IMG/VR virus record: IMGVR_UViG_3300003886_000001
Span: 55,666-119,665 of that record
Origin: a virus
Reading direction: 5' to 3' (one strand)
DNA: 64,000 nucleotides
The notes under the pieces are model-generated. The model ran no database searches and was not told the DNA's origin. It was given only the letters and a program-made list of their open reading frames with translations. This document shows positions 3,784-22,767 of this stretch, piece by piece; position 1 is the first letter of the stretch; the number at the start of each line of letters is the position of its first letter. The translations under genes were made by a program, and so were the position numbers.

Positions 3784-5687
3784 TCTTCCAACTGCCTTCG
3801 GTATTTGTGGACAAGGTGCTGTCCTATGATTGCCTGCTTAGAAGTCAAAAACGGGGCTTCGGCCAAAGAATGTCCAATGTTAGAGTCTACCATACTAAAT
3901 CCCATCCCATTCCTTTCGGTAGCCCTGTCAGAATCTAACAGCGCTAGCTGCTGTAGCTTAGCGTGAATGATGCTAATTTCGTCCTCCTCCATGTACTCTG
4001 CGGTTTCTTCTATCTCTCGATAGGTGGGGTAATCGTCGTCATTAAGCTGATATTCGGCATCAAGCGCCTTATCAATAACCCTTTGTTTCCCGATAACGGT
4101 CTGGGCCATAAGGGCATCGAGACTGCCTTCCAATACCAAGTGCTGTACCAAGACGGCATCATCTTGTCCAATACGGTGGCACCTGTCTTCTGCCTGGCTA
4201 ATGTTTCCAGGCACCCAGTCTAACTCTGCAAACACTACGTGGGAGGCTGCCGTTAGCGTAATTCCTACCCCGGCCGCCTGTATGTTCCCGAGGAAGTATT
4301 GCACGCTAGGGTCATTCTGGAACCTGCTTACGGCAATTTCCCGGTCTTCCATCTTAGTGTCTCCGGTCAAGACAACGGCTGCCTCTCCCAGGTCTTCTTT
4401 AAGGGCGTAGATGACATCTTTATGGTGGGCGAACACAACCACCTTATGGTCGATATTGTGGAGATGTTCCAACACGTACGGTATTTTAGCTACCGCCGTA
4501 TCATGACGAAGCGCGGATAACTCACTAAAGTATACCGCAAAGTCGTGCCGGAGTTCAGAAACCGCATGGGCATATTCCTCAGGACTGCCCGCTTTAGCCA
4601 ACTCCACGTTAGCCTTCAAGGTCTCTTGCTTTTCCCACGCCTCTGCTTCTGCCTTTACCAGATAGCGTGCATCACCTTCGGGTGGAATTTCAATAATCTG
4701 TCGCCGCTTTGCTGGCAATTCTGTTAGTACGTCTTCCTTTAAACGCCTAATCATTAAACTACTCCGCAGCCGGTCCTGCAATTCTTCAAGGTTGCTTGAC
4801 CCATTAAAGTCCCAACCGTAACCATTATTTGTAGCGCCGCAGTAGCGCTGGGCGTAGGTCCAGTAGGAAGGCCATTCCTTGGAGTCCAGGGAATGGAGTA
4901 CCGGATATAGTTCAATAGGGCGATTAGTAATTGGCGTCCCTGTCAGGTAAATGCGTTTGTTGGCTTGAATGCCATTAATGGCAGCTTTACCTGTCTTTGT
5001 TTTTTTGGCCCCAAAGATGTACTTTGTCCGTTGGGCAGTCTGGTGCTTGAGGTAATGCACCTCATCAATAATGAGGATATCCCACACCTGACTAGTTAGG
5101 ACCTCGTGGTGTTTTCTAACCACGTCGTAGTTAATAATGACTATGTCCACATTCTCGGGATACTTACTGCGGTTGACAACACCGATTGTGTAAGGGAGAA
5201 CGAGCCACTTTTCTAGTTCTTTACGCCAATTGAGACGCAAAGAGGCTGGACAGATAATCAGAACTTTCTGCTTTTCAGAGGAATTAATAACCCCTATAGT
5301 TTCAATGGTTTTGCCCAGCCCCATTTCATCGCCCAACAAGGTACCGGTCTTATTTAATGCAAATGCAATCCCGGCCTTTTGGTAAGGTAGGTATTCCAGG
5401 CCTTTCGGAGAGTCTACCGAAAGGTTAGCATCAGTAGCGCGAGAAAGCTCTCGATTAGCCTCTCGTTGCTCTAAAACTTCCGTCGGAACCTTCCCCCAGT
5501 GGCAGATGGTCCATTCCCCGTCATTCTCGCGAACAACAGAATAGCCATCCTTTTTCAGATTAGCCTTGTCTTTCTTCCACAAGGCCCAGAACTCTTGCGT
5601 TGTATGGGCTTTGCGAAGAATACGTTCCCCATATTTAGTGCGGACAGTTCTGGGCTCGGTCCAGTTAAGTTGGTCTAGAACTTCCAT
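3780..5687 (-). CDS. SNF2-family (SMARCAL1/HARP-like) helicase
   Basis: LLGDEMGLGKT, ICPASL, IIDEVH, LTGTPITN, RRLKEDVL, GITLTAA, QAEDRCHRIGQ. Confidence 0.95.
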   Translation of the reverse strand: MEVLDQLNWTEPRTVRTKYGERILRKAHTTQEFWALWKKDKANLKKDGYSVVRENDGEWTICHWGKVPTEVLEQREANRELSRATDANLSVDSPKGLEYLPYQKAGIAFALNKTGTLLGDEMGLGKTIETIGVINSSEKQKVLIICPASLRLNWRKELEKWLVLPYTIGVVNRSKYPENVDIVIINYDVVRKHHEVLTSQVWDILIIDEVHYLKHQTAQRTKYIFGAKKTKTGKAAINGIQANKRIYLTGTPITNRPIELYPVLHSLDSKEWPSYWTYAQRYCGATNNGYGWDFNGSSNLEELQDRLRSSLMIRRLKEDVLTELPAKRRQIIEIPPEGDARYLVKAEAEAWEKQETLKANVELAKAGSPEEYAHAVSELRHDFAVYFSELSALRHDTAVAKIPYVLEHLHNIDHKVVVFAHHKDVIYALKEDLGEAAVVLTGDTKMEDREIAVSRFQNDPSVQYFLGNIQAAGVGITLTAASHVVFAELDWVPGNISQAEDRCHRIGQDDAVLVQHLVLEGSLDALMAQTVIGKQRVIDKALDAEYQLNDDDYPTYREIEETAEYMEEDEISIIHAKLQQLALLDSDRATERNGMGFSMVDSNIGHSLAEAPFLTSKQAIIGQHLVHKYRRQLEE

Positions 5688-5727
5688 ATCTAAATCCTAG
5701 CATAACTACATGAGAGCCTCCTGAGGA

Positions 5728-5997
5728 TTAATCTTTAACCTTCTCTAGGGTAACCATATTAAAACTTACTGCAAATCTTTCTAGGTATACCTCGGTCCTC
5801 AGAGGGTACACTTCTACCCTTCGTACCAGGTACCGTTTCTCCTTAACCAGTAACGTCCTTACCTGGTTGCGGTCAGAATCCGAGCCAGCTTCAAAAAATG
5901 GAATAACAATGTCCCCAGGTTGTAAAGGATAGGTAGGGTCATCAAAGACGACCTTACCATTTGGTAAAACATCAGGCTTAGTAAAGTTTTGTGTCAT
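5728..5997 (-). CDS. Hypothetical phage protein
   Basis: 89-aa ORF coupled to upstream gene. Confidence 0.65.
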   Translation of the reverse strand: MTQNFTKPDVLPNGKVVFDDPTYPLQPGDIVIPFFEAGSDSDRNQVRTLLVKEKRYLVRRVEVYPLRTEVYLERFAVSFNMVTLEKVKD

Positions 5998-6467
5998 CTT
6001 TCCCCCCGTATATAGCGGACTTCAAAGGGATATTCCAGATAGTTAGCCAAAGACATTTCATGCTCGGGCTGAGAGTCCTCAAGATGTAGTTGTACAACTT
6101 CCTCCATTTCCGTATATAGCTCCTCTAAGGTTGCAGCGGTGACAGCTGCCTGCCAACGCAACGCTCCTGCCGACCAATTATGCTCTAGTTGTACTGTTGC
6201 AAAAGGATAGTAACCTAGGCACAGGTCGTGGATATTATTGTATGCTAGTGCCGCGCCTGTATCTTCGACGTCGTCGTGATGGAAGTGGTTAATAAGTATT
6301 TGAGCTGGGCGTTGTATCTCGTTGAGGATTGTCTCCATAGACACGCCCTCTGCAATATCCCACCACAAAACAAGTCTAGCATGGGGAGAGTCTTCGTCTC
6401 CGCTAACTAGATAACTATCTTTTACGTGGAGGCCGATTCTCTTAGGACCGCCCATTATCAATTCCAT
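5994..6467 (-). CDS. Paralog family A domain fused to a C-terminal HicB-like domain
   Basis: IGLHVKDS..LWWDI..ILNEIQRPAQILIN..IHDLC, then AAVTAATLEELYTEMEEVVQLHLE. Confidence 0.65.
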   Translation of the reverse strand: MELIMGGPKRIGLHVKDSYLVSGDEDSPHARLVLWWDIAEGVSMETILNEIQRPAQILINHFHHDDVEDTGAALAYNNIHDLCLGYYPFATVQLEHNWSAGALRWQAAVTAATLEELYTEMEEVVQLHLEDSQPEHEMSLANYLEYPFEVRYIRGER

Positions 6468-6469
6468 TT

Positions 6470-6802
6470 TTAAGTCCTTTCTACATAATTTGAGATACGC
6501 TTTTCAGCGCCGGCGGCATTACCAACTAATGCTCTAATAAACCCCCATCTACTTCCACGTGGATAAGGTGGTGCCATAATGTACTCATTAAGAATTATTT
6601 GAGCATCCACTACCAGCTTTGGGAGTAGTGACTCAGCGTATTCCGGGGTACGTGAGGGAATAAACCACCACCTAAACACAGCACCATAAAATACTTCTAC
6701 ATCAGATACTTTAGAGTTAATAGCTAATACTCCAGTATCAAGATGCAAGGCAATATAGGATGCCTTAAGTATAGGGTGATATTCTACTTTAACAGTCTTC
6801 AT
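6470..6802 (-). CDS. Paralog family A protein
   Basis: IALHLDTGVL..FRWW..SLLPKLVVDAQIILN. Confidence 0.7.
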   Translation of the reverse strand: MKTVKVEYHPILKASYIALHLDTGVLAINSKVSDVEVFYGAVFRWWFIPSRTPEYAESLLPKLVVDAQIILNEYIMAPPYPRGSRWGFIRALVGNAAGAEKRISNYVERT

Positions 6803-7358
6803 GGTCTGGTTTTTCTCGGGCTAGATTCCGGCAATCAAATAAATATTCCTTTAGGTCTAAAAGGACCGTTATTAAATCATCCTCTTCATAGGATGCATTC
6901 AATATAGGAGCCCTAGGGTTATCCTCTAAATAATGACTCATGTCTTCCAATTGTCCGTCTGTTGTATAACTATACACAGAGTCAATAATTCTCCCATCAT
7001 CCCAATCGGCGGCCTCTACATAACGTACTGGTTTATGTTCCTCTGTACGCGTCTTGCAGGCTGTAGCTATTCTTGCGTGGGCTTCTAATGCAGAACCACC
7101 CGAATCCAAGGCAATCTGAGCATCTCCCGCAATATTTCCCAGCAAACTATCAGCGGCAATCGGGGTTAATACCCCTATAGGCCAGACTAGTGACTTCGTT
7201 CGTAGTCCCTCCGACCTCTGTATTGATAAGCTACCGGCACCCCAATCTAACACTACCTCGCAAGGATGGGGCTTATTAGTAGGAAAGTCATACCATAATG
7301 AGTTCTTGAGTCGTGCGGAATCAAGAGCAGTGGGGATGATGTTAATAATTCTCCTCAT
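6789..7358 (-). CDS. Paralog family A protein, long form with C-terminal extension
   Basis: VVLDWGAGSL..VWPIGVLTPIAADSLLGNIAGDAQIALD..IATAC; start 7358 inferred from ATGA overlap. Confidence 0.75.
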   Translation of the reverse strand: MRRIINIIPTALDSARLKNSLWYDFPTNKPHPCEVVLDWGAGSLSIQRSEGLRTKSLVWPIGVLTPIAADSLLGNIAGDAQIALDSGGSALEAHARIATACKTRTEEHKPVRYVEAADWDDGRIIDSVYSYTTDGQLEDMSHYLEDNPRAPILNASYEEDDLITVLLDLKEYLFDCRNLAREKPDHEDC

Positions 7359-7747
7359 GCTCGTACAGCCCCGCATGCTTCCGCAATACGATTATAGGAT
7401 GTTCTAGCGGATTCTGATACAACACTTCCCGCTAAGTCGTCCCAGATACTATCGGTTGGCGTTGCCGTTACCTCGCTGCCGTCAAGGACCCGTTGAGCAA
7501 ACGGTTTAACGGTGTTCATAAGTGCATCCGCCGCAGGTCCTGATAGCGGGGCGATAGGCCATTCCAACGTAATTCCTACTAACACCCCTTCCGGGATTCT
7601 TCCGACGTCCCGGGTAAGGACATATAGACGCCCCGTTTCAAGGTCAAGACGCAAGAAACACGCCTCGGCCTCGCTATTCTGTTGAAGGGCTAAGTCTAGT
7701 TGCAGGATAGTATTAACCCTAACGTCCTTGACGGTTACAAGACGCAC
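7355..7747 (-). CDS. Paralog family A protein
   Basis: LRLDLETGRL..LEWPIAPLSGPAADALMNTVKPFAQRVLDG..IAEAC; GTG start after GGGGAG. Confidence 0.75.
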   Translation of the reverse strand: MRLVTVKDVRVNTILQLDLALQQNSEAEACFLRLDLETGRLYVLTRDVGRIPEGVLVGITLEWPIAPLSGPAADALMNTVKPFAQRVLDGSEVTATPTDSIWDDLAGSVVSESARTSYNRIAEACGAVRA

Positions 7748-7748
7748 C

Positions 7749-7946
7749 TCAGTCTCCCCACCCCTCTGCTCGGTCCGCGCATTCATCACACTGGTAGTGG
7801 GCGCGGACATCGAGTTGTGTCAGCCGATTAGGTTCCCCGCAGGTGGGGCAAGGGAGGTTACGTGGGTTACGCCGAGTAGAGCGACGCAAGGCGCTACCAC
7901 TATTCTCGAATCCAACACCATCAATCGGTTCATCGTAGTAATCCAT
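7749..7946 (-). CDS. Small Zn-finger phage protein (leaderless)
   Basis: LPCPTCG..YQCDECAD; TTGACA-17-TATAGT-5-ATG. Confidence 0.8.
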   Translation of the reverse strand: MDYYDEPIDGVGFENSGSALRRSTRRNPRNLPCPTCGEPNRLTQLDVRAHYQCDECADRAEGWGD

Positions 7947-7951
7947 GTCTT

Positions 7952-7980
7952 ACTATAGCACCTGGTCATCTAGGTGTCAA
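7952..7980 (-). promoter_or_regulatory. Canonical sigma70 leaderless promoter
   Basis: TTGACA 7975-7980, 17-nt spacer, TATAGT 7952-7957. Confidence 0.85.
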
Positions 7981-8302
7981 CAGTTTGTTGACACAGTTTT
8001 GTGATTTGACGCTTCGCAGTGATAAACGGAGGGCCAAAACGCAGCACGTCTCCCGAGGCTGTATCAACAAACTGGCAGTTGTCAATCATTTGTTGAGCAA
8101 ACGGGGTAATACTCTCTAGCAGGTCGTTGACATCTTCTGGTGCAACAATAACACGCCAATGTCTGACGGGGTTAGTGCGTGCGGCAGAATCTGTTTTTGG
8201 GGCGTCGTACCCCACTAGTGTAAGCTCTTCGCTAGCAATGTTGAAACGTACGTAAACAAACTTCCTGTCAGTAGCATTAACAATCTTTAAAGTTGTGGAC
8301 AT
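7970..8302 (-). CDS. Paralog family A protein
   Basis: VRFNIASEEL..RHWRV..NDLLESITPFAQQMID..ITKLC. Confidence 0.75.
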   Translation of the reverse strand: MSTTLKIVNATDRKFVYVRFNIASEELTLVGYDAPKTDSAARTNPVRHWRVIVAPEDVNDLLESITPFAQQMIDNCQFVDTASGDVLRFGPPFITAKRQITKLCQQTVDT

Positions 8303-8687
8303 TTATCTCCCCTTCTGCTAAGACTCCGATTATATCCCATACCTCATCTTCTTTGATAAGGTTTGACATCCGGTTAGAATCGCCGGGGTCAAAAACCCTT
8401 CTACCATCCCATACCATAGCATGCCACTCTGTGAATATGATGTGAACAGGAGCAAACGACTTAGGAGGCCAGGGTTTTCTTTCCACACCCAGAATGTGAC
8501 CCTTTGGCCATGTCATGCGGTGAAGGTGTTTGATACCATAGCCCGCTTCGAGCAGTAGATGCTTTACACCTGTCACGGTAGTTGCCGACCAACAGGTAGG
8601 AATGGTGTTAAGAGGCAGTCCTGTCACCATCGCGATGCTCGCGGCGACGCATTGATTAGGCTGTTGTGAGACGTATTGGATTAGTTT
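8277..8687 (-). pseudogene. Peptidase C39-like gene whose start codon appears lost
   Basis: Open frame extends upstream of ATG 8630: KLIQYVSQQPNQCVAASIAM...HAMVWDGRRVFDP; in-frame TAA at 8688-8690. Confidence 0.55.
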
Positions 8688-8707
8688 TTACTCCGCTCGC
8701 GTATGAG

Positions 8708-8747
8708 ACAAACTGTCACCACTTGTTGATAAGTGGTGACGTTTTGT
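8708..8747. terminator. Probable bidirectional terminator
   Basis: GTCACCACTT/AAGTGGTGAC 10-bp stem, 8715-8740. Confidence 0.7.
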
Positions 8748-8751
8748 CTGA

Positions 8752-9051
8752 CTAGATTTGCTCATTTATTGAGATGGACGGTAAAGCCTGCTCTTCTAGC
8801 TCACCCATGTCTTGATAATTCAGGACCTCCAAGTTGTACAAAATGTTAACATTAAAACCTGCAACATCTTGTACTACCCATTCGGGGAATGCCGCGCTTC
8901 TTCCATCCTTAAGGTTGATTATCAATCCCCGAGGCACCTTAAAGGCTCGGACAGGGGGCGCCCCTTTATGTACTAAAACATGAATAGTGGCTGGCGAGGA
9001 GATTCTTGAGTATACTTCCTTAAGTTCGCTTTTTAATTCAGGCAGCGTCAT
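8752..9051 (-). CDS. Hypothetical protein
   Basis: 99-aa ORF with ATGA overlap to upstream gene. Confidence 0.65.
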   Translation of the reverse strand: MTLPELKSELKEVYSRISSPATIHVLVHKGAPPVRAFKVPRGLIINLKDGRSAAFPEWVVQDVAGFNVNILYNLEVLNYQDMGELEEQALPSISINEQI

Positions 9052-9467
9052 GGGCGCAACACCTTCTCTTCGCCTGCCGTGACCGTAGCCTTCCGGCTAC
9101 CATTAAGAAACTCTACTTTATCAACTGCAACTGTGACCGTAGGGCGGCGGTTGTCCTTATGGGACTTCACCGTATAAGCATACTCTCCGGTCATACTGGT
9201 AGACTTTACGACCCCGACGCTAAGAAAGTCCAGCGGACGACTAGGGTCCTGGGCATATTCCCCGGCCAGGTATACAACGAACTTGGCGGCAAGGTAAGGG
9301 GCATCATGGAATCGCGTATCTTTGGTTTCTGCCTCCACTTTGTCAAAGAAACCCTTGAATACATGAACCATTTCTTCGGGGTAGCCGTCCCAGTGCTTGT
9401 AGATAGTACCACCATTAGGTGCGAATGTTACTCGACAAGGGGTAGACATTTTAAGTTTCCTTTCCAA
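9048..9467 (-). CDS. Conserved phage protein with YxHWDGYP motif
   Basis: TIYKHWDGYPEEM; true start may be MSTPC near 9449. Confidence 0.75.
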   Translation of the reverse strand: MERKLKMSTPCRVTFAPNGGTIYKHWDGYPEEMVHVFKGFFDKVEAETKDTRFHDAPYLAAKFVVYLAGEYAQDPSRPLDFLSVGVVKSTSMTGEYAYTVKSHKDNRRPTVTVAVDKVEFLNGSRKATVTAGEEKVLRP

Positions 9468-9473
9468 AGAAAG

Positions 9474-9662
9474 TCACTTGGCTTCAATTGTTACGCTGTA
9501 GTCTCCACTTTCGATGATGTTGTCTAAAAGGTCGTCCATGTTTGACGTATCTATTGCAATCATCTCATCTAGTACCCCTTGAGTCACTTTTTCCGGGGCT
9601 TTTGTAAAGTAGCCAGAGGGGTTGGCCTCGTATTCGTGAGTAAGGGTAAGCTTAAACACCAT
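9474..9662 (-). CDS. Small acidic hypothetical protein
   Basis: 62-aa ORF in operon. Confidence 0.6.
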   Translation of the reverse strand: MVFKLTLTHEYEANPSGYFTKAPEKVTQGVLDEMIAIDTSNMDDLLDNIIESGDYSVTIEAK

Positions 9663-9807
9663 CTTTATCTATCAACCTCTCTAGTCTCAAGCCTTCTTTA
9701 AGCACCTGTCGAGCCTTTCCTCGGACCTCTTGCAAAAGGGCCATGACCCGCTTTTTTCCGTAGTCTTGTCCAAACTTCCTTTTATGTGTCTTTCCCATGT
9801 CCTTATC

Positions 9808-10482
9808 CTACTTGTCCTGACGATGAGAAAGATGTGAAGTTACACGTAGTCTCCCGCGACCGTGGGCCTTGAACCCAACCGTTAGGGAACGATTTGGCTT
9901 GAAGCAGAGGCGGCATTTATCGCAGGTCATGCCAACGGTCTGGTTCGGACATACTACCACGTCACCGAAACGCTTCCCTTTAATATCATATGGCAACACT
10001 ATGACGGTATCCCAACCTGCTGCACGAGCTTCCTTTACCTCTTCCGGTTGCTCGCAGGAAGCGCTTAATGTCAAGTTTTCGGGGAACACAAACCGCTTAC
10101 GGTCAATGACCCGCCATGCATGAGTGTACCCATACATCTTTACGTCGGGGCGCTCTTTGGCCCCGAGGATGATAGCGTCAAGGTAGTCTACGTCTAGGTC
10201 GCCATCCGCCATAACATCGCCGGATACATGTAGCCGAAGGGCGGCCCCGTGGGGAATCCTCTTCAATTCCCGGAGAAAGACTTTACCGTCTTCCGTAGAG
10301 TAAGTGCCTATACTCTGTAGTCTTACATTGCCAAATTGCGCATAGCAGCCATTGTTCAACAGGCTACAATTAGTGGGGCAAGACGTACCAACTTCACGAT
10401 AGGTAGCGTAGAATGGGAGATGCTTGTTGTTGCCTACAAGTTTTCTGTTAGCTGTAGGCTTGAGTGTTACTCGGAGTGCCAT
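9808..10482 (-). CDS. Cys-rich radical-SAM-related phage protein (gp88-like)
   Basis: SCPTNCSLLNNGCYA, RLHVSGD, YGYTHAW, CPNQ..TCDKCRLC. Confidence 0.7.
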   Translation of the reverse strand: MALRVTLKPTANRKLVGNNKHLPFYATYREVGTSCPTNCSLLNNGCYAQFGNVRLQSIGTYSTEDGKVFLRELKRIPHGAALRLHVSGDVMADGDLDVDYLDAIILGAKERPDVKMYGYTHAWRVIDRKRFVFPENLTLSASCEQPEEVKEARAAGWDTVIVLPYDIKGKRFGDVVVCPNQTVGMTCDKCRLCFKPNRSLTVGFKAHGRGRLRVTSHLSHRQDK

Positions 10483-10488
10483 GGATAA

Positions 10489-10553
10489 ATAATAGCGTTA
10501 AATAGTCTGAGAAGCATGAGACTAATCTTTCTCATTAACTATCAGACTAAAAT
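10489..10553. promoter_or_regulatory. Back-to-back divergent TCTCA-N12 leaderless promoters
   Basis: Minus: TCTCAG 10507-12 / TATTAT 10489-94 / ATG 10482. Plus: TAATCTTTCTCAT 10523-35 / TAAAAT 10548-53 / ATG 10559. Confidence 0.75.
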
Positions 10554-10558
10554 AGAGC

Positions 10559-11050
10559 ATGGAGCAGAAAAAGGCCGTCACCCTTGCCCGGAAGTTAATG
10601 AACCAACATGGTCTAGATACATTAACGCTCAAGATAAGTAGTAGTAAACGAACCTTGGGAACCTATCAGTACAGAACAAGCGCACGTGGCGTTCACGAAC
10701 CCGTGCAGATTAAGCTGTCAAAATATTGGTTAAAAATATTGGATGAGGACCAAGTACGGGACACAGTGTTGCATGAGATTGCCCATGCGCTGACCCCTGA
10801 CCATGGCCATGACCATGTCTGGCAACAGATGGCCCGGAAACTAGGAGTTTCTCCATCTCGTACGGCCCACGATGTTCCGGTAGAAGTACAGAAACGCCTT
10901 CGCCAGAGCGTGGCAAAATACGTCGCCATCTGTGAGACCGACCCATCCCATCGGTATTATTTTAATCGTATGGGGAAATTATGGTCCGCCGGAGCATACC
11001 GCTGTCACTGCGGAGGCCGTTATCATGTTTCTCATAATTCTTCGGGATAA
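10559..11050 (+). CDS. SprT-like metalloprotease
   Basis: VRDTVLHEIAHAL..HGHDHVWQQMARKLG; C-terminal Cys pairs. Confidence 0.9.
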   Translation: MEQKKAVTLARKLMNQHGLDTLTLKISSSKRTLGTYQYRTSARGVHEPVQIKLSKYWLKILDEDQVRDTVLHEIAHALTPDHGHDHVWQQMARKLGVSPSRTAHDVPVEVQKRLRQSVAKYVAICETDPSHRYYFNRMGKLWSAGAYRCHCGGRYHVSHNSSG

Positions 11051-11053
11051 GAT
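11030..11053 (+). promoter_or_regulatory. TCTCAT-N12-TAAGAT leaderless promoter
   Basis: ATG follows 6 nt later at 11060. Confidence 0.65.
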
Positions 11054-11059
11054 AAAGAC

Positions 11060-11179
11060 ATGGAACAGACACTCAAGCGCTTGGCTCGTGACTATTATAG
11101 GCACAATTGCCCCCTCCCTGATTACCTACTGGCTGTAATCACCCGTTCTCCTCTTCCTTACGGTTTTTCCTCCCCATGA
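11060..11179 (+). CDS. Small protein (39 aa, not in ORF track)
   Basis: MEQTLKRLARDYYRHNCPLPDYLLAVITRSPLPYGFSSP; ATGA overlap with next gene. Confidence 0.6.
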   Translation: MEQTLKRLARDYYRHNCPLPDYLLAVITRSPLPYGFSSP

Positions 11180-11547
11180 CTTCTATAACGTTTCTTGGAG
11201 AGGTACCTAAACCTGCTCGTCAAATTGGATTAGATGTGTTATCCGGAGAGTTATGGGTAACCTGGAACCAGAGGAAGACATCGACTCAAAAGGAATGCTT
11301 ACGTAAGGCCGGGATAGAGCCGCATAAGTTTGACTGGGCAATCCTGTGGTGGGGAATTGAAGAAGTATTACCCCCAAAGGAATTGAAGACTTTACTCCGG
11401 TCGATTAAGCCACACATACAGATTCTGTTGGATAATTATAAGCTTGTAAAAGATGCGGCTGGAAACAATAAAGTTGACCTTCCAGACGGCCCCGCGAGCG
11501 CCGCTTACTACGCCATCTGTGACCTATGCGATAGCACCTACTTATAA
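11176..11547 (+). CDS. Paralog family A protein
   Basis: IGLDVLSGEL..LWWGI..TLLRSIKPHIQILLD..AICDLC. Confidence 0.8.
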   Translation: MTSITFLGEVPKPARQIGLDVLSGELWVTWNQRKTSTQKECLRKAGIEPHKFDWAILWWGIEEVLPPKELKTLLRSIKPHIQILLDNYKLVKDAAGNNKVDLPDGPASAAYYAICDLCDSTYL

Positions 11548-11548
11548 T

Positions 11549-11572
11549 TCTCATCTTTAACGGTGCTATTGT
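11549..11572 (+). promoter_or_regulatory. TCTCAT-N12-TATTGT promoter
   Basis: Followed by an AGGAGG leader to 11593. Confidence 0.65.
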
Positions 11573-11592
11573 ATGGGTAGGAGGAAAATACC

Positions 11593-11901
11593 ATGAAGTC
11601 GGTGAATGTGATTGCGCCTTCTGAGCTGGAAGACCATTATGTTATACTGGACTACGAGACTGGAAACTTGTCTGTAGGGTCTGGTAAAAATACCGGTATT
11701 GCTACGATTTGGAAGATTCATAAGGACTTGTCAACGCCTGCTTTGAAGATGCTTTTGCAGGATATTAAACCCTATGCACAGCAGGTGCTTGATGGTTCAC
11801 ACCCGGAGCCCGTCCTGGTTGTAATGACCAAAGAAGCGGTTCGGGCAGAAGCTGATATCTCCATCCTATGCGCGGAAGTGAGCGGCTATGAGGATTGTTA
11901 A
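11593..11901 (+). CDS. Paralog family A protein
   Basis: VILDYETGNL..IWKI..MLLQDIKPYAQQVLDG..ISILC. Confidence 0.8.
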   Translation: MKSVNVIAPSELEDHYVILDYETGNLSVGSGKNTGIATIWKIHKDLSTPALKMLLQDIKPYAQQVLDGSHPEPVLVVMTKEAVRAEADISILCAEVSGYEDC

Positions 11902-12070
11902 ACATGGTAGAGAGTAAACCCGTGACAGGACCATACTTGCCTAGCGGTCCTGTTGCCGCCGCTTTGGAGATTTGTATTCCCTTGATGAAGAAAATGACCA
12001 AAGAAGCGGTTCGAGCAGAAGCTGATATCTCCATCCTATGCGCGGAAGTGAGCGGCTATGAGGATTGTTA
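11823..12070 (+). repeat. 78-bp direct repeat (11823-11900 and 11993-12070, one mismatch)
   Basis: AATGACCAAAGAAGCGGTTCG(G/A)GCAGAAGCTGATATCTCC...GAGGATTGTTA occurs twice, 170 bp apart. Confidence 0.95.
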
Positions 12071-12071
12071 G
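11904..12071 (+). pseudogene. Chimeric remnant of neighbouring family A genes (55 codons)
   Basis: VESKPVTGPYLP and PLMKKMT resemble IEGKPFIGLYLP and PLIKKMT of 12058; C-terminus identical to that of 11593. Confidence 0.6.
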
Positions 12072-12642
12072 ACGTACAGCCCCAATAGAAGGTAAACCCT
12101 TTATAGGGTTATATTTGCCTGGTAGCATTCTTTCGTGTTATAGCCTTTGTTCTGACCCAGCTAGTTTGTCCTACGACTTATTTGCTGATTCAGCTATATG
12201 GGACCGTTTTCAGCTGAATTGGGAAGTCGGGCCTCTAACCCTAAGTGGTATTAACCAGTTAATGGAGGATATTTCCGACCTGGCACAGATAATTGTGGAT
12301 GGCTCCGTGTTGGACTTTGACAACGAGACGGTTATAAGTACGGCGCCGGCTACCACTGCCATAAAAGAGATTAAAAAGGTTTGTAGGGATACTTTTCCTT
12401 CCCCTTATCCCTTGATAAAAAAAATGACGACAAAGTCATGGATAACCAGTATCCTACCTTGTCTTGATGATATTAAGGCATACACAGTTGTAGAGAAGTT
12501 GAAAGAGTGTAATAGAGACTATCACTTCCTCTTGGAATTGGAGACTGATATTGAGTCGCTATTAGGGGAGGGTATAGTGTTACTGGACCTTCCTGACTAC
12601 CTACAAGGAATGCACGATAGGATGGTGTGTAATGCAATATAG
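12058..12642 (+). CDS. Paralog family A protein, long form
   Basis: LNWEVGPLTLSGINQLMEDISDLAQIIVDG..IKKVC; C-terminal LLDLPDYLQ. Confidence 0.8.
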   Translation: MRIVRRTAPIEGKPFIGLYLPGSILSCYSLCSDPASLSYDLFADSAIWDRFQLNWEVGPLTLSGINQLMEDISDLAQIIVDGSVLDFDNETVISTAPATTAIKEIKKVCRDTFPSPYPLIKKMTTKSWITSILPCLDDIKAYTVVEKLKECNRDYHFLLELETDIESLLGEGIVLLDLPDYLQGMHDRMVCNAI

Positions 12643-12793
12643 TATTATCCCTCAAGACCATGGGTTTATCGCGGTTTGCGAGGAATACCCTTCTCTATCG
12701 GCATTTGGAGCTACGGAAGCGGAGGCCCTTACCGAGCTTGAAGGGCTAGTAGAAACCGCTATTGAAATTTATGAGGAAGAAGGCTGGGAGTAA
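12632..12793 (+). CDS. Stand-alone HicB-like antitoxin-fold protein (53 aa, not in ORF track)
   Basis: MQYSIIPQDHGFIAVCEEYPSLSAFGATEAEALTELEGLVETAIEIYEEEGWE. Confidence 0.75.
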   Translation: MQYSIIPQDHGFIAVCEEYPSLSAFGATEAEALTELEGLVETAIEIYEEEGWE

Positions 12794-13386
12794 TGGTTAC
12801 TGCTATACCAAAGAAAAGGTCACTATTGAGCTTTGACGGTAATATCCCACGAAAATGTCATGTACTCCTCGATACCCTCGCGCAGGAATTGTGGGCTACT
12901 GACGCAGTTGTTAGTGACCTTTTACTTCCTAATCTTAAATGGGAAATTGCTCCATTAACTGCGGATGGAACAAACGCACTGTTGAGGGATATTACCGAGG
13001 CGGCCCAGGAAATAGTAGACGGGGCTACCATAGATAAAAATGAATTACATCTTACAACCTCCGCTCTTATGGCGCAAGGAGATATCCTTAATCTCTGTAT
13101 TCGCACATTTGACTCCCCCTATGAAAGGGCAAAATGGGTAACCGCCGAAAAATGGATGGCTACGACGCTAGTGGGAATGTCCAAGTATGACCGTAACGCT
13201 CTTTTACTAATTGAGGACCTTCATAACCTAAAGGGCCATACCTACAACTACCTGGTAAGCCTAGAGGAAGCTGTCTACGAGCTTGTAGCGGAGGATACCA
13301 CGTTGGTAGGACTAGAAGACTATCTACAGGCACAGTATCGCAAAGCGTTGTTTTCGGACGTAGAGAGATGTCTACATGAAGCTTGA
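12793..13386 (+). CDS. Paralog family A protein, long form
   Basis: VLLDTLAQEL..LKWEIAPLTADGTNALLRDITEAAQEIVDG..ILNLC; C-terminal LVGLEDYLQ. Confidence 0.8.
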   Translation: MVTAIPKKRSLLSFDGNIPRKCHVLLDTLAQELWATDAVVSDLLLPNLKWEIAPLTADGTNALLRDITEAAQEIVDGATIDKNELHLTTSALMAQGDILNLCIRTFDSPYERAKWVTAEKWMATTLVGMSKYDRNALLLIEDLHNLKGHTYNYLVSLEEAVYELVAEDTTLVGLEDYLQAQYRKALFSDVERCLHEA

Positions 13387-14032
13387 ATTGCTACCTGAGA
13401 CATATCATTTACCGAAGAGCTATGATGACCCAGCACAACCATATGTTCAACTGGACCTAAATTTGGGAAGATTAACAATTGTACTAAAGGACCGGCCGGA
13501 TGAAAAAAGAGTGCTTCTCGGGAGTAACGCAACGGTACGTGAATGGCAAATTGCAGTGTTTTCGGTTGCGGCCGCTAATGCATTATTGAGGAAGATACAG
13601 CCATTTGCACAAGAGCTATTAAATAACATTGAGCCCAGCTACACGTTTAACGGGGCTGGGGAAAGGGCCTGGAAGAATATTGACCACCATTGCAAACTCA
13701 CCTTTACGACGATGGAGGGATATGGTGTTCACCTCAACTTTCGAGTGGAAGAAGTCGGGGACTATTATCGCTACGTTATCTTGAAGAACACTGGGATTTT
13801 TACCGCTTTGGCAATTCTTGATGATGAGACTAAAACTGACATAGTAGAGCATCATACTTTAATGTGGACGACAAGGGGGTTAAACACGGCAGAAACTAAT
13901 GACCTGCTCAAGGAGTTATCAGTCTTTGCTATGAAGCTATTGACAATCGGACTTGTAGATGATACATTTGCAGAGTGGAGTTCCGAATACGCCGAGGTTA
14001 TCGAAGCTGTATGTTCCGCCGCTGGACTTTAA
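13376..14032 (+). CDS. Paralog family A protein with two tandem domains
   Basis: VQLDLNLGRL..EWQI..ALLRKIQPFAQELLN..IDHHC, then VILKNTGIF..MWTT..DLLKELSVFAMKLL..IEAVC. Confidence 0.75.
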   Translation: MKLELLPETYHLPKSYDDPAQPYVQLDLNLGRLTIVLKDRPDEKRVLLGSNATVREWQIAVFSVAAANALLRKIQPFAQELLNNIEPSYTFNGAGERAWKNIDHHCKLTFTTMEGYGVHLNFRVEEVGDYYRYVILKNTGIFTALAILDDETKTDIVEHHTLMWTTRGLNTAETNDLLKELSVFAMKLLTIGLVDDTFAEWSSEYAEVIEAVCSAAGL

Positions 14033-14076
14033 CATCCCCTATGTTATAGTCCACCCATCATGTTAAAGGAGGAGAT

Positions 14077-14349
14077 ATGAAGGTTAAGGTGTTGCACGAA
14101 AGTGGCCGCGTTCTTCAACTTGACATGAGCACTGCGGAGCTTTCCATTCAAACGGGTTCCACCTTTGAGAAAAACTATACGCTCCTAGCCCGTTTGCGTT
14201 GGCCCATCACTACTACTAAGCATAGCGAATCTCTTCTCATGGAGGCTGCTGGTTTCGCACAAGTGCTCATTGATTGTCACGAGGCTGGGGATATCACACG
14301 CCAAGTGGCCTCTGACGCACGAAAAGCAATTCATGGACTTTGTAAATAA
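14077..14349 (+). CDS. Paralog family A protein
   Basis: MKVKV..LQLDMSTAEL..LRW..LLMEAAGFAQVLID..AIHGLC. Confidence 0.8.
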   Translation: MKVKVLHESGRVLQLDMSTAELSIQTGSTFEKNYTLLARLRWPITTTKHSESLLMEAAGFAQVLIDCHEAGDITRQVASDARKAIHGLCK

Positions 14350-14377
14350 GCATATCAAGAGATTTAAAGGAGGAAAG

Positions 14378-14452
14378 ATGAAGGTTAAAGAAGAAGAGAT
14401 GAAGGTTAAAGAAGAAGAGATGAAGGTTAAAGAAGAAGAGATGAAGGTTAAA
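14378..14452 (+). repeat. 21-bp tandem repeat x3 plus a partial copy
   Basis: ATGAAGGTTAAAGAAGAAGAG at 14378, 14399 and 14420; ATGAAGGTTAAAG at 14441. Confidence 0.98.
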
Positions 14453-14701
14453 GTGGAACATGTCACATATATTTCCCTCTCACACGAAACCGGTATCCTT
14501 TGTGGGACGGATGGGTACCAGGCAACGATGTGGGGATGGGCTACGAATACAAAGAACAGCGAGGCCTTACTTAATGCTATCTCAGGGTTTGCCCAGATTC
14601 TCTTAGATACATACAAATACGAGACGAACCCAATAATGTTACGAGCCTATAATTTGGCGGATTCGGCGATAGAGGCACTATGTCTGGAAAAAAACACATG
14701 A
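14378..14701 (+). CDS. Paralog family A protein with MKVKEEE x3 N-terminus
   Basis: Start 14378 after AAAGGAGG; ISLSHETGIL..WGW..LLNAISGFAQILLD..AIEALC. Confidence 0.8.
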   Translation: MKVKEEEMKVKEEEMKVKEEEMKVKVEHVTYISLSHETGILCGTDGYQATMWGWATNTKNSEALLNAISGFAQILLDTYKYETNPIMLRAYNLADSAIEALCLEKNT

Positions 14702-14967
14702 AGGTCAAAGTAGAAAATGAGGTTAACTTTATCTCCCTTTCGTCGGAGGATGGTCTTCTCCGTGGCGGGATGGAGTCACAGGCAAATCACTTTACGTGGG
14801 AGTGGCCTACAACTACAAAGGACGCCTACACCCTGTTTACTGTTATTAAGGGGTTTGCACAGAGTCTCTTGGACCTGGACGAGCTTGAAGATAGTGCCCT
14901 TGCAACGCTGGCTCTTGACCTGGCAGACCAGGCGATAGAAAGACTATGTCTGGAACACAATGATTAA
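14698..14967 (+). CDS. Paralog family A protein
   Basis: MKVKV..ISLSSEDGLL..WEW..LFTVIKGFAQSLLD..AIERLC; start 14698 by ATGA overlap. Confidence 0.8.
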   Translation: MKVKVENEVNFISLSSEDGLLRGGMESQANHFTWEWPTTTKDAYTLFTVIKGFAQSLLDLDELEDSALATLALDLADQAIERLCLEHND

Positions 14968-15469
14968 CGACACTTCAGCCTTCAGCGCGGCATCCTATCT
15001 AGCCTACAAAGGAGCGTACCCGCTCCTTATTGAACCCACTGGGCGCGTGACAGCAACGGATGGCTATATGTTCTTTACCCACGAGGGGTGCCTAAGTGAC
15101 TGGGATACCACGCTCCTACTAGCACCTATCAAGAGACCCAAGATTCTCCGCTCGCAACGTGGCGTTAACCTGGAATTCCTGACGAACGGGTTTGGGTGGT
15201 CATTGACACAAAGTGGGACGATATTAAACAGTTTTAAGGTCAAGGAAAGACTACAGTTTCCAGATTATCACGTTCCCGAGCTTGATGCTACCTCTCCATT
15301 GAAGGGGGACTTCGTCCCTCTTAACGCCCGGCTAGTTGCTCCGGTACTTAACATCCTCATGTCGCCAAATGATAAAAGAGCGTTCGGGTGGTATAATGTA
15401 GACGAACTAGTGTTAAAGTGGGGTCACCCAAACTATGACTTGTACGTAAGAAAGCTTGTCTCCGCATAA
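14960..15469 (+). CDS. Hypothetical protein, possibly sliding-clamp (beta-clamp) fragment-like
   Basis: LLIEPTGRVTATDGYM and FPDY motifs. Confidence 0.55.
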   Translation: MINDTSAFSAASYLAYKGAYPLLIEPTGRVTATDGYMFFTHEGCLSDWDTTLLLAPIKRPKILRSQRGVNLEFLTNGFGWSLTQSGTILNSFKVKERLQFPDYHVPELDATSPLKGDFVPLNARLVAPVLNILMSPNDKRAFGWYNVDELVLKWGHPNYDLYVRKLVSA

Positions 15470-15733
15470 TGAATCTAGAGGACATAGACACTTTGTATAT
15501 GCTGTCCGGACTCAGCGGGGGTAACAATATTTCATATCGAGGACGGTCAAGGGTTACGCCTACAAGAGCACCTGTGGTCTGTATTAGGCGTTGTCCGCTT
15601 TATTGATAGGGGAACCGGTCGAGAGAATGCGACGGCCTTACAGCGGCATCTGGGGGCTCTCTGGGGCCGTCGATACGAACAAGTAAAGTCAGTTTTGGGT
15701 GAAGGTGATATCCGATTACACCTGAGACCATAA
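15469..15733 (+). pseudogene. ORF split by an apparent +1 frameshift at a G5 run
   Basis: ATG 15469 frame stops after 45 aa; the +1 frame from GGGGG 15517-21 is open to TAA 15733 with no own ATG. Confidence 0.4.
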
Positions 15734-15822
15734 AAAGGGGCTTTCTTCCGTTTCCGCGTCCCGTCACCGCGTACTCTGGTTTACTCGCCCGGTTAAACTA
15801 AGCCTAGTATAGACCATTTCCT

Positions 15823-16128
15823 CTATTTTGTCAAGTTTGGACTCCAAAGCTTCTGAGGGCCATCATAGACCTTTGCGTCACTGTCCTTCCGTGCTTCCTC
15901 TAGCCAGAGAGACGCCTTTATCTCGTCGGCAAACGGGATGATATAATTCTCCCCACGTACAAACTTCCCGTTTACTAACTTGGCGTATTTACTGTCGGGT
16001 CCACCAACGGCATCCAAAAATGCCTCATTCTCTACCTGGTCAAAGTACAGCACCTCGATAGAGTAGGCGTCACTATCAGTCGACCTATACACCTCCGCTA
16101 CAATGTTTTCTTCTTTAATCCCCCTCAT
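15823..16128 (-). CDS. Hypothetical protein
   Basis: 101-aa ORF; ATGA overlap with upstream gene. Confidence 0.7.
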   Translation of the reverse strand: MRGIKEENIVAEVYRSTDSDAYSIEVLYFDQVENEAFLDAVGGPDSKYAKLVNGKFVRGENYIIPFADEIKASLWLEEARKDSDAKVYDGPQKLWSPNLTK

Positions 16129-16412
16129 CTCTTATGCCCTCTTTCTACGCTAGCTAGCAGCGCGTCCATGGACTGTCCGGTCTTTCCCAGGCAGTCTTTT
16201 ACTACCCGGCCGTTAGCAGGGTAGACCGCAAACTCATCGTAGGCGTGGATGATGTCCTTGGCGTATACGTCGCCCATCTCATGTTCCCACCCGAAAACAT
16301 CTACGAGGACCAACTCGTCCTTGGCGCTCTTCATGGCCTTTCGTACCACGCCGGGCCAGCCGGTTATCAGGATAACAACATCGCCCTTCTGGAGCTTCTC
16401 TTTGGTATCCAT
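16125..16412 (-). CDS. SH3/KOW-like small phage protein (leaderless)
   Basis: LQKGDVVILITGWPGVV..VDVFG..GDVYAKDI. Confidence 0.7.
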   Translation of the reverse strand: MDTKEKLQKGDVVILITGWPGVVRKAMKSAKDELVLVDVFGWEHEMGDVYAKDIIHAYDEFAVYPANGRVVKDCLGKTGQSMDALLASVERGHKR

Positions 16413-16417
16413 ACGTT

Positions 16418-16448
16418 ATTTTACGTCCCTTCTGTATGAGAAGTATTA
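16418..16448 (-). promoter_or_regulatory. TAATACTTCTCAT-N12-TAAAAT leaderless promoter
   Basis: TCTCAT 16436-41, -10 at 16418-23, ATG 16412. Confidence 0.75.
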
Positions 16449-16577
16449 TCCTTTTCAAGGCATAAGTAAATCTGTAGATGCCATGTACCAAGGATGATGC
16501 GTCTATCATGCGGGCTGGCACATAGCAGTGCTTTTCCCAGTGCTACCAGGAAGGCATCCTCAGACTTCATCATAGCC

Positions 16578-17048
16578 TCAGCTTCTGTCATTCTCCGTTA
16601 CCTCAAAATCGCCCCCACAGACACTACAGCGATAGTAATTAGGGTTAGCCCAGTGTTTTCCCATCCGGTTGAAGTAAGTCCTATGCTCGGGGTTCTTTTG
16701 GCATACGGCTACGTACTTTGCCACCTTCTGCACTACGTCCCGTGTAATCTCCTCGGGAATACAGGAAGCGGTCCTCGTCGATGCAATACCAAGTTTTCTT
16801 GCTACCTGTTGCCATTCTTTCCCATGCTCTGCATCAGTGCTGCTTAACGCATGAGCTATCTCATGGAGTATGATGTACTTTACGTGCTCTGTGGGCAAAT
16901 TGGTTACCCACGGCTCCGACAAGCTGATTGTTCCCAAAAGGTAGTACCCCAGACAATGTTTCCCTTTGTTCCACGTTAAGGCTACGTCCTCTAGCCCGTT
17001 TTCGTCCATTAGCTTCCGGGCTAGTTTGGCGGCATGGCTCTTAAGCAT
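16578..17048 (-). CDS. SprT-like metalloprotease (paralog of 10559)
   Basis: YIILHEIAHAL..HGKEWQQVARKLG..VAKYVAVC. Confidence 0.9.
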   Translation of the reverse strand: MLKSHAAKLARKLMDENGLEDVALTWNKGKHCLGYYLLGTISLSEPWVTNLPTEHVKYIILHEIAHALSSTDAEHGKEWQQVARKLGIASTRTASCIPEEITRDVVQKVAKYVAVCQKNPEHRTYFNRMGKHWANPNYYRCSVCGGDFEVTENDRS

Positions 17049-17256
17049 GGTTTAACTCTGGGAGGTTCTTGCCATGAAGGGACCACCAGTCTTGGACACA
17101 AGCGTTAACGCGGTCTTCCCATATCCGAAACACGTTAAGGATGTCCCGGTCATTATCTACCGACGCCAAAGCGTGTCCCAAGTCCCTCATGAATGTATCC
17201 TTAGAGTCGGTCATGGCAAGTAATACGTAGTAGATGGCTACGTCCTTGGATTCCAT
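17041..17256 (-). CDS. Hypothetical protein (leaderless)
   Basis: 71-aa ORF; promoter 17262-17285. Confidence 0.7.
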   Translation of the reverse strand: MESKDVAIYYVLLAMTDSKDTFMRDLGHALASVDNDRDILNVFRIWEDRVNACVQDWWSLHGKNLPELNHA

Positions 17257-17261
17257 GCCAT

Positions 17262-17285
17262 ATAATACCCTGTTTATAAATGAGA
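17262..17285 (-). promoter_or_regulatory. TCTCAT-N12-TATTAT leaderless promoter
   Basis: ATG 5 nt after -10. Confidence 0.7.
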
Positions 17286-17558
17286 AGGATGAGCTGATAG
17301 GTTAAAGTCCCGTAGCACACCGTCAAACTCAAACAGGTTGAAGTAGTCATCTTCCATTCTCAGAGCCGTCTTAGAGTCCACAACAGCCATCGCCTCTTTG
17401 AGGGTGGTTACCCCTGTCAGGTCCTTATCTTCCAAGCCTCTAGCCGCCCCTTTGTACACAAAGAATTCAGTATCGGAGTGATACTCTAGACGGGAGGACA
17501 CGCCGGGCTCCGGATAAGCTACTTCAACTTGCATGATTAAATCCATACTACTCTTCAC
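17274..17558 (-). CDS. Hypothetical protein
   Basis: 94-aa ORF in operon. Confidence 0.65.
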   Translation of the reverse strand: MKSSMDLIMQVEVAYPEPGVSSRLEYHSDTEFFVYKGAARGLEDKDLTGVTTLKEAMAVVDSKTALRMEDDYFNLFEFDGVLRDFNLSAHPSHL

Positions 17559-17730
17559 CTTTGTAAGAACGCTCGTTCTCCACGATTAAGGCTCCCATCC
17601 TACGCAGAACTTCTTGGGGCGTGATATAAGGCTCGGGTGCCCAGTCCAGCGTGTTCTCTTCTGTGAATTCTGGGGCGTAGACCTTTGCGTATGCTTCCAG
17701 GAGACTGTCCATGTTTACCTCCGTGTCCAT
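17548..17730 (-). CDS. Small acidic protein
   Basis: 60 aa, E/D-rich; start may be the second Met. Confidence 0.6.
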   Translation of the reverse strand: MDTEVNMDSLLEAYAKVYAPEFTEENTLDWAPEPYITPQEVLRRMGALIVENERSYKGEE

Positions 17731-17770
17731 CCGCTGTCCTATTGTATGTGCCCTTTCAGCTCTAGACCAA

Positions 17771-17976
17771 CACTAAGTGAGAAATATAAGAGGCAAGTGG
17801 CCCCCGGTGAAGCTGTAATGGGGGCCGCTGCGGAGTAGTGCCCCGGGTACCTCGGGTTGTGCCTTCCGCGTATACCTTAGGCACGTATGTAGTATAGGCT
17901 GATACTAAGTGAAGAGTATGAGGGCAGCGACCCCCCGGTGAAGCTATAATGGGTGGGGGCCGCTGCGGAGTAGTGC
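17771..17976. repeat. Imperfect ~70-bp direct repeat with GC hairpin
   Basis: ACTAAGTGA..CCCCCGGTGAAGCT(G/A)TAATG..GGGGCCGCTGCGGAGTAGTGC at 17771-17841 and 17903-17976. Confidence 0.9.
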
Positions 17977-18048
17977 AAATACCCGGATATATCAATATGG
18001 TGGGTATTGCAGCATATCGTGTTGCCCAGGCTCTGCCTAGGTAGCTAT

Positions 18049-18079
18049 ACTATAGGCCTAGACAGAATGAGAAGTATTA
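18049..18079 (-). promoter_or_regulatory. TAATACTTCTCAT-N12-TATAGT promoter with no downstream leaderless ATG
   Basis: TCTCAT 18067-72, -10 at 18049-54. Confidence 0.7.
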
Positions 18080-18342
18080 AAGTCACAGAGGTTGCTAATA
18101 GCTTGGCTAGCTTCTTCCCTCATCTGGTATTCCACAGTGCCCTTTGGGTGGTAGTAGTAGTCCAGGAGAATTTGGGCAAATGGAAGAATAGCCCCCAGTA
18201 TGGCCAGGTCGTCCGTATCGCGCATAATTGCCCATCCTACGGTGTTGCCTGCTGGTATCGTGCGATTGATACACAAGTCGCCCGTTTCCAAATTAAGGCA
18301 TATACTCCGAGACTCCATGGACGGGGTTATTTTAACTTCCAT
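18058..18342 (-). CDS. Paralog family A protein
   Basis: ICLNLETGDL..VGWAI..ILGAILPFAQILLD..AISNLC. Confidence 0.8.
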   Translation of the reverse strand: MEVKITPSMESRSICLNLETGDLCINRTIPAGNTVGWAIMRDTDDLAILGAILPFAQILLDYYYHPKGTVEYQMREEASQAISNLCDFNTSHSV

Positions 18343-18467
18343 AGTCTTCCTTTCTCAAAATGAGACACAGCACCCACGTTAGGCGCTGTGCTCTACGGCA
18401 TCCCCCCGTCGTGCTCTTATCCTATAGTGGGACCCGCACTGTCTAGGCGTACGTCCTAGGTAGCTAT

Positions 18468-18491
18468 ACTATAGGCCGAGTGCGCATGAGA
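18468..18491 (-). promoter_or_regulatory. TCTCAT-N12-TATAGT promoter
   Basis: TCTCAT 18486-91, -10 at 18468-73; shares CCTAGGTAGCTATACTATAGGCC with the 18049 site. Confidence 0.7.
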
Positions 18492-18756
18492 ATGATGAGT
18501 CGCAGAGGTGGATAATTGCCCGGCTAGCGCCCATGTATGCCTGATACGCCAAGCCGTCTCTTGGAACCTCAAGGCAGTCCAGGACAATCTTGGCAAACGG
18601 GGCAACGAGGCGGAGTAGCTCGTCGGTGTCCGTAGTTGCACTGATTGACCACCCGGTGACGTGCTTGCCCCGCACCGTGTAGTCCACGTACAAGTCTCCT
18701 GTCTTATGGTCCAGGCACAGCTTGTCGCCCTTTGACGAGATTACTTTAACGTCCAC
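18469..18756 (-). CDS. Paralog family A protein
   Basis: LCLDHKTGDL..TGWSI..LLRLVAPFAKIVLD..AIIHLC. Confidence 0.8.
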   Translation of the reverse strand: MDVKVISSKGDKLCLDHKTGDLYVDYTVRGKHVTGWSISATTDTDELLRLVAPFAKIVLDCLEVPRDGLAYQAYMGASRAIIHLCDSSFSCALGL

Positions 18757-18759
18757 GCG

Positions 18760-19056
18760 TCACTCCCTTTCCGTGCAAAGATTACTAATTGCCTCAACCG
18801 CTACCTCGTAGACATTTAACTTCACGTTGTCTGGTAAGGGGTTATGGAGGTTATCGTCGTAGTCTAGTATAATTTGGGCGAAGGGCTCGGCGGCCTTCAT
18901 AGTCTCGTGAGCATCACGGTTTAACGGAAGATACCACATAATAACGTCGGCCGACTCCGGCACTTCCGGCGCTACCGGGGCCGCTTGTAGAGTGCCCGTT
19001 ATGAGGTCCAGCCAGAGAACGTGCGGCTTAGCGGGTGGCACTACTTTGAGTTTCAT
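18760..19056 (-). CDS. Paralog family A protein (leaderless)
   Basis: LWLDLITGTL..IMWY..MKAAEPFAQIILD..AISNLC. Confidence 0.8.
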   Translation of the reverse strand: MKLKVVPPAKPHVLWLDLITGTLQAAPVAPEVPESADVIMWYLPLNRDAHETMKAAEPFAQIILDYDDNLHNPLPDNVKLNVYEVAVEAISNLCTERE

Positions 19057-21141: not shown

Positions 21142-21142
21142 G

Positions 21143-22228: not shown

Positions 22229-22233
22229 ACTTC

Positions 22234-22642: not shown

Positions 22643-22654
22643 CCACGCCCTTTC

Positions 22655-22762: not shown

Positions 22763-22767
22763 AAAGT

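Follow-up and report, generated by a model that had tools for sequence, protein, structure and literature searches.

A lineage-specific family of 22 diverged, domain-shuffled DUF8280-related genes in a phage genome

The window studied here (64,000 nucleotides, bases 55666–119665 of the 119,665-bp IMG/VR virus record IMGVR_UViG_3300003886_000001, a contig termed G000 in our comparisons) carries clusters of small phage genes that share one domain, which we call domain A. A preliminary description of the window listed 16 such genes with 17 domains following a single residue pattern. All 16 open reading frames (ORFs) are borne out in position and strand, the two motifs quoted as examples lie in the genes at 7355 and 18058 (genes are named by their lower window coordinate), and an alignment has one tryptophan and one isoleucine invariant, with two leucines, an alanine and a cysteine near-invariant. 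Leave-one-out hidden Markov models (HMMs) recover 17/17 domains (17–63 bits, E 2e-4 to 1e-18), whereas in a shuffle control the best of 200 per domain never exceeded 10.6 bits, and the members are highly diverged, as first described, with a median pairwise identity of 22% and a maximum of 49% among the 17 domains. The count is right inside the window but too small for the whole contig, which has 22 genes and 27 A domains at five loci (10.7 kb, 8.9% of the contig). No further paralog family of more than three members was found in the contig.

Several architectures occur, as reported; across the contig they are A, A-B, A-A and A-B-A, B being a second domain. The first cluster, on the minus strand, comprises 5994..6467 (A plus a probable decayed B, 157 residues; leave-one-out E 7e-10), 6470..6802 (A-only, 110 residues; leave-one-out E 5e-9, external A profile E 6e-7), 6789..7358 (A-B, the ancestral architecture, ~189 residues; external A E 9e-9, external B E 5e-5), 7355..7747 (A-only, the top scorer against the outside family; external A profile E 6e-21) and 7970..8302 (A-only, 110 residues; leave-one-out E 3e-9). 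The probable start of 7355 is a GTG at 7747 with a GGGGAG ribosome site upstream, which corrects the earlier assignment. The middle cluster, on the plus strand, runs through 11176..11547 (A-only, 123 residues, with the longest variable loop, 32 residues; leave-one-out E 5e-13), 11593..11901 (A-only, 102 residues; leave-one-out E 3e-15), 12058..12642 (A-B, 194 residues; external A profile E 1.5e-14), 12793..13386 (A-B, 197 residues; external A profile E 1e-13), 13376..14032 (an A-A tandem of 218 residues; leave-one-out E 3e-16 and 2e-4), 14077..14349 (A-only, 90 residues; leave-one-out E 1e-13), 14378..14701 (A-only, 107 residues; leave-one-out E 1e-18) and 14698..14967 (A-only, 89 residues, forming the closest pair with 14378 at ~50%; leave-one-out HMM). 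The third cluster, again on the minus strand, consists of three A-only genes: 18058..18342 (94 residues, the copy that was modelled; leave-one-out E 2e-16), 18469..18756 (95 residues) and 18760..19056 (98 residues, apparently leaderless), the latter two recovered by the leave-one-out HMM.

With the 17-domain profile six extra genes came to light ahead of the window. Five are in tandem at contig 12118–16232, one of them an A gene and the others ~310-residue A-B-A genes, and the sixth is a single A gene at contig 54743, which is the sister of 7970 in our tree. Domain B is present in 6789, 12058, 12793, the four A-B-A genes and probably 5994, and is absent from the other 14 genes; only one broken remnant was found among the copies. 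The weakest assignments are the N-terminal A domains of the A-B-A genes (external profile E 0.01–0.7), two of which reached E 1e-5 and 0.008 in a separate search.

The preliminary description could not name a family for these genes; they correspond to the N-terminal domain A of DUF8280 (PF26929), an acidic ~200-residue two-domain (A-B) protein of mobile elements. Profile–profile comparison of the copies with PF26929-annotated proteins covers the whole A domain (HHalign 99.5%, E 2e-22). A search with the 17-domain profile returned 398 clusters among 1.84 billion representatives; the best 150 of these are mostly ~200-residue acidic proteins, and every one that was checked carries the PF26929 (DUF8280) annotation. 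In the window, 13/17 domains match the external A profile at E ≤0.0011 (the remaining ones at 0.003–0.16), and a profile made solely of outside members picks out 16 family stretches of the genome when E values as high as 1 are admitted. The C-terminal LxDYL domain noted earlier in 6789, 12058 and 12793 is real, and what is new is that it is DUF8280 domain B, detectable by external profile in 6789 and in the gene at contig 12519. Elsewhere DUF8280 is single-copy, complete (A-B) and acidic, with conserved Y/Q/Q, IG-P and WDGxN motifs, whereas here there are 22 genes, mostly truncated or shuffled; because these conserved polar motifs (Y20/Q23/Q27, IG-P, WDGxN) are lost, the copies are derived DUF8280 members. 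Other resources were silent: four window proteins have no precomputed Pfam annotation; Pfam (a local copy without the DUF8280 model), PHROGs, NCBIfam and PADLOC assigned neither the copies nor DUF8280 relatives to a family; the ESM Atlas added no information; 12793 and protein P0021 had no match among 50,697 GenBank phage records; and a literature search found no paper naming the DUF8280 family.

The HicB fusion proposed for 5994 is doubtful. Its C-terminus has no Pfam or NCBIfam HicB-like match and continues in register into domain B (whole-length alignment weak, E 0.016), so a decayed B domain seems the likelier origin of this segment, neither assignment being firm. Within the middle array there is a stand-alone HicB-like (UPF0150) ORF of 53 residues, outside the family (12632..12793, plus strand; PF21748 E 0.011, below cut-off), for which no HicA partner was seen; the 5994 C-terminus shows a weak likeness to it (shuffle p 0.046).

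Structure prediction agrees with a single shared fold. AlphaFold2 models of an outside A-B protein (predicted local distance difference test score, pLDDT, 96.7) and of 18058 (pLDDT 84) both have a domain A of strand-strand-strand-helix-helix order, a small β-sheet followed by two long helices; this agreement is not independent, because the 18058 model used outside sequences. Among the viral models of BFVD, A0A6J5T181, a DUF8280 relative, is the best match for both the A-B and 18058 models (for 18058, template-modelling (TM) score 0.64, probability 0.98, E 0.055). Comparison with solved structures (PDB by sequence, Foldseek and VIA-align) turned up chance-level similarity only, the best Z being 4.6 for A-B and 5.3 for A-only, which does not prove that the predicted fold is new. 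The domain B model is a small three-helix bundle with weak homeodomain- or helix–turn–helix (HTH)-like matches (Z ≤4.6). A homodimer prediction for 18058 scored 0.25 (mark 0.42), evidence neither way.

The domain is not routinely multicopy. DUF8280 occurs once in 12/12 whole records (two complete phage genomes, one Kitasatospora genome and nine partial contigs) and once in 33/33 loci totalling 260 kb, many of them short and some redundant. Two colinear relatives of our contig, G001 (202 kb, median protein identity 61%) and G007 (194 kb, 45%), both ~97% complete, contain zero copies by exhaustive six-frame HMM search, and G001 shows an empty site: its DHH and DUF1003 genes, whose counterparts border the five-gene array of contig 12118–16232, are separated by just 30 bp. 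With 22 diverged genes here, none in these relatives and one copy elsewhere among the records and loci examined, the lineage-specific diversifying expansion first proposed is upheld. A survey of 5.8 billion proteins yielded no close outside relative of any copy; P0072 and P0022 are degenerate outside matches. Our trees are quick trees, in which long-branch attraction is possible; the best places 23 phage domains on one side with support 64, leaving a single origin neither shown nor rejected, and when four weak N-terminal domains are added the label requires two changes. From these data we infer a single gain of one DUF8280 gene by an ancestor of the phage. Arrays imported ready-made from several elements, or old arrays lost from the relatives, are a somewhat doubtful alternative, which would alter the history only and is compatible with any function. 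Consistent with it, the paralogs (20–50% identical) are more diverged than G000–G001 orthologs, and the guanine–cytosine (GC) content of each cluster is that of its surroundings; set against it are the two copy-free relatives, the one origin in the best tree, and the failure to find a multi-copy or similarly degenerate donor either in the best 150 of 398 matches or in the 5.8 billion proteins.

The copies have diverged in a structured way. Among the closest pairs the synonymous rate (dS) runs from 1.25 to saturation and the nonsynonymous rate (dN) from 0.4 to 0.9, a ratio of roughly 0.2–0.5 that, with dS saturated, marks them as old duplicates under net purifying selection; the closest whole pair shares 52% of amino acids and 61% of nucleotides (dS 1.65). 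Terminal branches are ~1.2 for copies versus ~0.5 for outside members. Core positions L33, L40, W64, L78, A85, Q86, I116 and C120 are kept in 70–93% of copies. Polar positions fall from 89% in outside members to 0% in copies (Q27), from 80% to 4% (Y20) and from 63% to 7% (R63), with Q23 and the WDGxN hairpin also lost, and net charge shifts from ~−9 per 100 residues in relatives to near neutral. Two loop segments span 12–32 and 15–35 residues in the copies versus 23 ± 1.3 and 29 ± 1.2 outside, and the alignment contains no invariant catalytic-type residue.

Traces of recombination are present: a 170-bp scar (11904..12073, plus strand) encodes a 55-residue chimera in which a 5′ end resembling 12058 is joined to the beginning of a B domain and to an 81-bp, 98% copy of the 11593 end, the repeat lying at 11823–12073; a 21-bp unit is tandemly repeated at the start region of 14378; and the 3′ end of 18469, with its TCTCAT motif, is repeated after 18058 (38 nt, 87%). 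Gene accordions, of which poxvirus K3L is an example, imply recent near-identical amplification, and the preliminary description had used this term. It does not fit here: synonymous sites are saturated, the closest pair is ~50% identical and the sole near-identical repeat is 81 bp. The family is thus a long-established radiation under selection, in which some of the rearrangement is recent, and not an active accordion.

Promoter-like sites, all of them consensus matches only, stand in front of most clusters. A consensus sigma-70 promoter (7952..7980, minus strand; 11/12, TG-extended) lies inside the 3′ end of 7970 and is placed to drive the genes from 7749 to 5994, the first of which (7749..7946, minus strand) is an unrelated ORF with weak Pfam zinc-ribbon matches; weaker sigma-70-like promoters stand before 14077. 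A TCTCA-N12-TAnnnT motif, found 35 times in the genome versus 6 in shuffles, precedes 11176, 11593 (TCTCAT-N12-TATTGT, 11549..11572, plus strand) and 18760 (TCTCAC-N12-TATACT, 19086–19063, minus strand). The motif may be a middle-type promoter; its spacing is similar to that of T4 MotA-box middle promoters. The early-region label therefore applies in part: the sigma-70 promoter stands before one cluster, the TCTCA-type motif before others. Sites of the form TCTCA(T/C)-N11/12-TAnnnT fall in the window at, for example, 2060, 2079, 3597, 9828, 11030, 16441, 17285, 19086, 20138 and 24225, and the motif is also abundant in G001 (~80 loose matches).

The gene neighbourhoods of single-copy relatives supply a functional lead. 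A coil–HTH tail is present in 21 of ~138 single-copy relatives (14 of the 21 were used to build the model), and in others an HTH- or ribbon–helix–helix (RHH)-like gene follows DUF8280. On one IMG/VR phage contig an AcrVA2 homologue (L006:11844-12839, E 2e-20) comes two genes after DUF8280. A Kitasatospora gene after a DUF8280-HTH gene looked AcrVA2-like by eye and gave no match on testing. Two relatives sit behind FtsK/TraB-like genes of actinomycete elements (assigned by eye), and at L031:10001-13621, among large phage genes, DUF8280 forms the C-terminus of a 1206-residue acidic phage protein with several small modules and repeated KKTA linkers, which looks like a polyvalent or head-packaged protein. 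The relatives thus resemble genes of acr/aca islands (PMC7648647) in being small, acidic, carried by mobile elements, fused to or followed by HTH or RHH proteins and once near AcrVA2; among the phage copies, by contrast, no HTH fusion was seen, and they are not acidic as a group. The association with HTH or known anti-defence genes was seen for the single-copy relatives and not for the phage copies.

The preliminary description expected anti-defence or host-protein-binding factors, a role that these neighbourhoods make plausible. Because the domain combines a fixed core and variable loops with no invariant catalytic-type residue, we favour a reading, with a probability of roughly 0.5, in which the copies bind different targets in the host, for counter-defence or host takeover. 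On this reading a phage ancestor acquired one DUF8280 gene, probably in a single gain. The sequences show what followed: tandem and dispersed duplications multiplied it, and its domains were rearranged at five loci as A, A-B, A-A and A-B-A genes. Purifying selection held the fold while the ancestral polar surface and acidity were lost and two loops were left free in length. Domain A would then have turned into a scaffold that binds without acting as an enzyme; separate copies would recognise separate host proteins, or separate alleles of a single defence target, and inhibit them through direct contact shortly after infection, the whole collection serving as a kit for counter-defence or host takeover. 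A more specific and only tentative form likens the set to an antibody repertoire, with a fixed core, two hypervariable loops and single, tandem and A-B-A formats, each member neutralising a different host defence protein. Several points weigh against the binding-protein reading: no target, partner or phenotype of any DUF8280 protein was found in the literature; the copies have no orthologs and their dS is saturated; many mobile-element genes have an HTH neighbour or an acidic product, which is no proof of anti-defence; AcrVA2 was met at one locus; and the features that hint at anti-defence are those of the ancestor and have mostly disappeared from the copies.

Other explanations could account for parts of the pattern. 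One is dosage or allele coverage of a single target, in which all copies would retain what the ancestral DUF8280 protein did and more genes would give more product, as in poxvirus or T6 SegB accordions. In its favour, the tandem arrays, the recent 170-bp scar and the duplicated gene-end/promoter units show recombination, and phages are known to amplify segments that carry anti-defence genes (PMC13096335); the lack of near-identical whole copies at dS of 1.25 and above, the absence from every copy of the best-conserved residues of the ancestral surface and the disappearance of B from most copies make this unlikely. Slightly less probable still are regulators of the phage programme that bind nucleic acid, RNA polymerase or each other (as combinatorial dimers) and tune transcription or translation. 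The HTH-like matches of the B model, the near-neutral charge of the copies and the A-A and A-B-A fusions would suit them, yet the Z-scores of those matches are of a size expected by chance, B has a strong negative charge in relatives (−17 per 100 residues), and zero copies occur in G001 and G007 although both have the core genes and the former has the TCTCA motif as well. Nearly neutral filler, in which duplicates fill a head-full genome under weak selection for folding only, could explain long branches, motif loss and domain B loss as relaxation, in line with a proposal that jumbo phages grow by tandem duplication (PMC5646251). We consider it improbable given 22 intact frames that retain their core at ~22% identity, dN well below dS, tight overlapping starts with promoter-like sites and just one broken remnant. 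Proteins packaged in the head and injected with the DNA, an idea prompted by the 1206-residue relative described above, are very unlikely: the clusters lie among small non-structural genes, away from the portal and structural block, and no common packaging tag is visible in the alignment.

The remainder of the contig, whose completeness is estimated at 72% (whole genome estimated at <200 kb), places the family in context. The phage, which is uncultured, is related to Thermus phage phiYS40, the two portals sharing 46% identity, and from this match only we infer a host in the Deinococcota. Before the window, 32 tRNA genes lie together at contig 49005–55543, with RtcB and an RNA-ligase-like gene nearby. 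A SNF2-like helicase block (window 3577–5997) adjoins the first cluster and is located elsewhere in G001 and G007, a rearrangement. Two SprT-like metalloprotease paralogs in opposite orientation (window 10559–11050 and 16578–17048) stand either side of the middle cluster, each preceded by a TCTCAT motif, with a single G001 match for the two. Downstream of the TCTCAT motif at the end of 18058, the non-coding stretch at window 17760–18050 has GC-rich units repeated at ~132–158-bp spacing, possibly a small RNA. A small second paralog family of at least three ORFs, with an N-terminal hydrophobic strand and a LYLV-type motif, occupies window 20959–23023. Few long ORFs occur at window 24700–28000, where GC drops abruptly from 55% to 36% and many TCTCAT-containing repeats lie at ~25770–26280; G001 is likewise gene-poor at the corresponding position, and the stretch is a possible origin or terminal region.

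Large paralog arrays are known in phages, their origin and purpose mostly obscure. The jumbo phages G and 121Q are reported to carry arrays with at least 30 members (PMC5646251, PMC7824862), which makes this a known kind of expansion; we found no report in the literature of a DUF8280 expansion, nor of one combining domain shuffling, loss of the ancestral surface, a traceable single-copy ancestor and an empty site. The single-copy ancestor, copy-free sister phages, empty site and residue-level record make the question of why phages multiply small genes a testable one, in that the ancestor can be compared with 27 derivatives. For DUF8280 itself there is now a confidently predicted structure that matches nothing solved, together with a first clue to function; if the binding-protein reading is true, the family would also offer a natural small binding scaffold. 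The arrays of G and 121Q are alike in being lineage-specific expansions of one small unannotated protein (20–35 copies; PMC5646251, PMC7824862) and differ in that, according to their descriptions, each is a single array in a jumbo genome with genes much like one another, whereas here a genome of <200 kb holds domain-shuffled copies of ~22% identity at five loci, with the ancestor and empty site traceable. The T6 SegB amplification (PMC13096335) shares with our family a rise in copy number of putative counter-defence genes by recombination; there the arrays are transient and their copies identical, whereas here the copies are old and their synonymous sites saturated.

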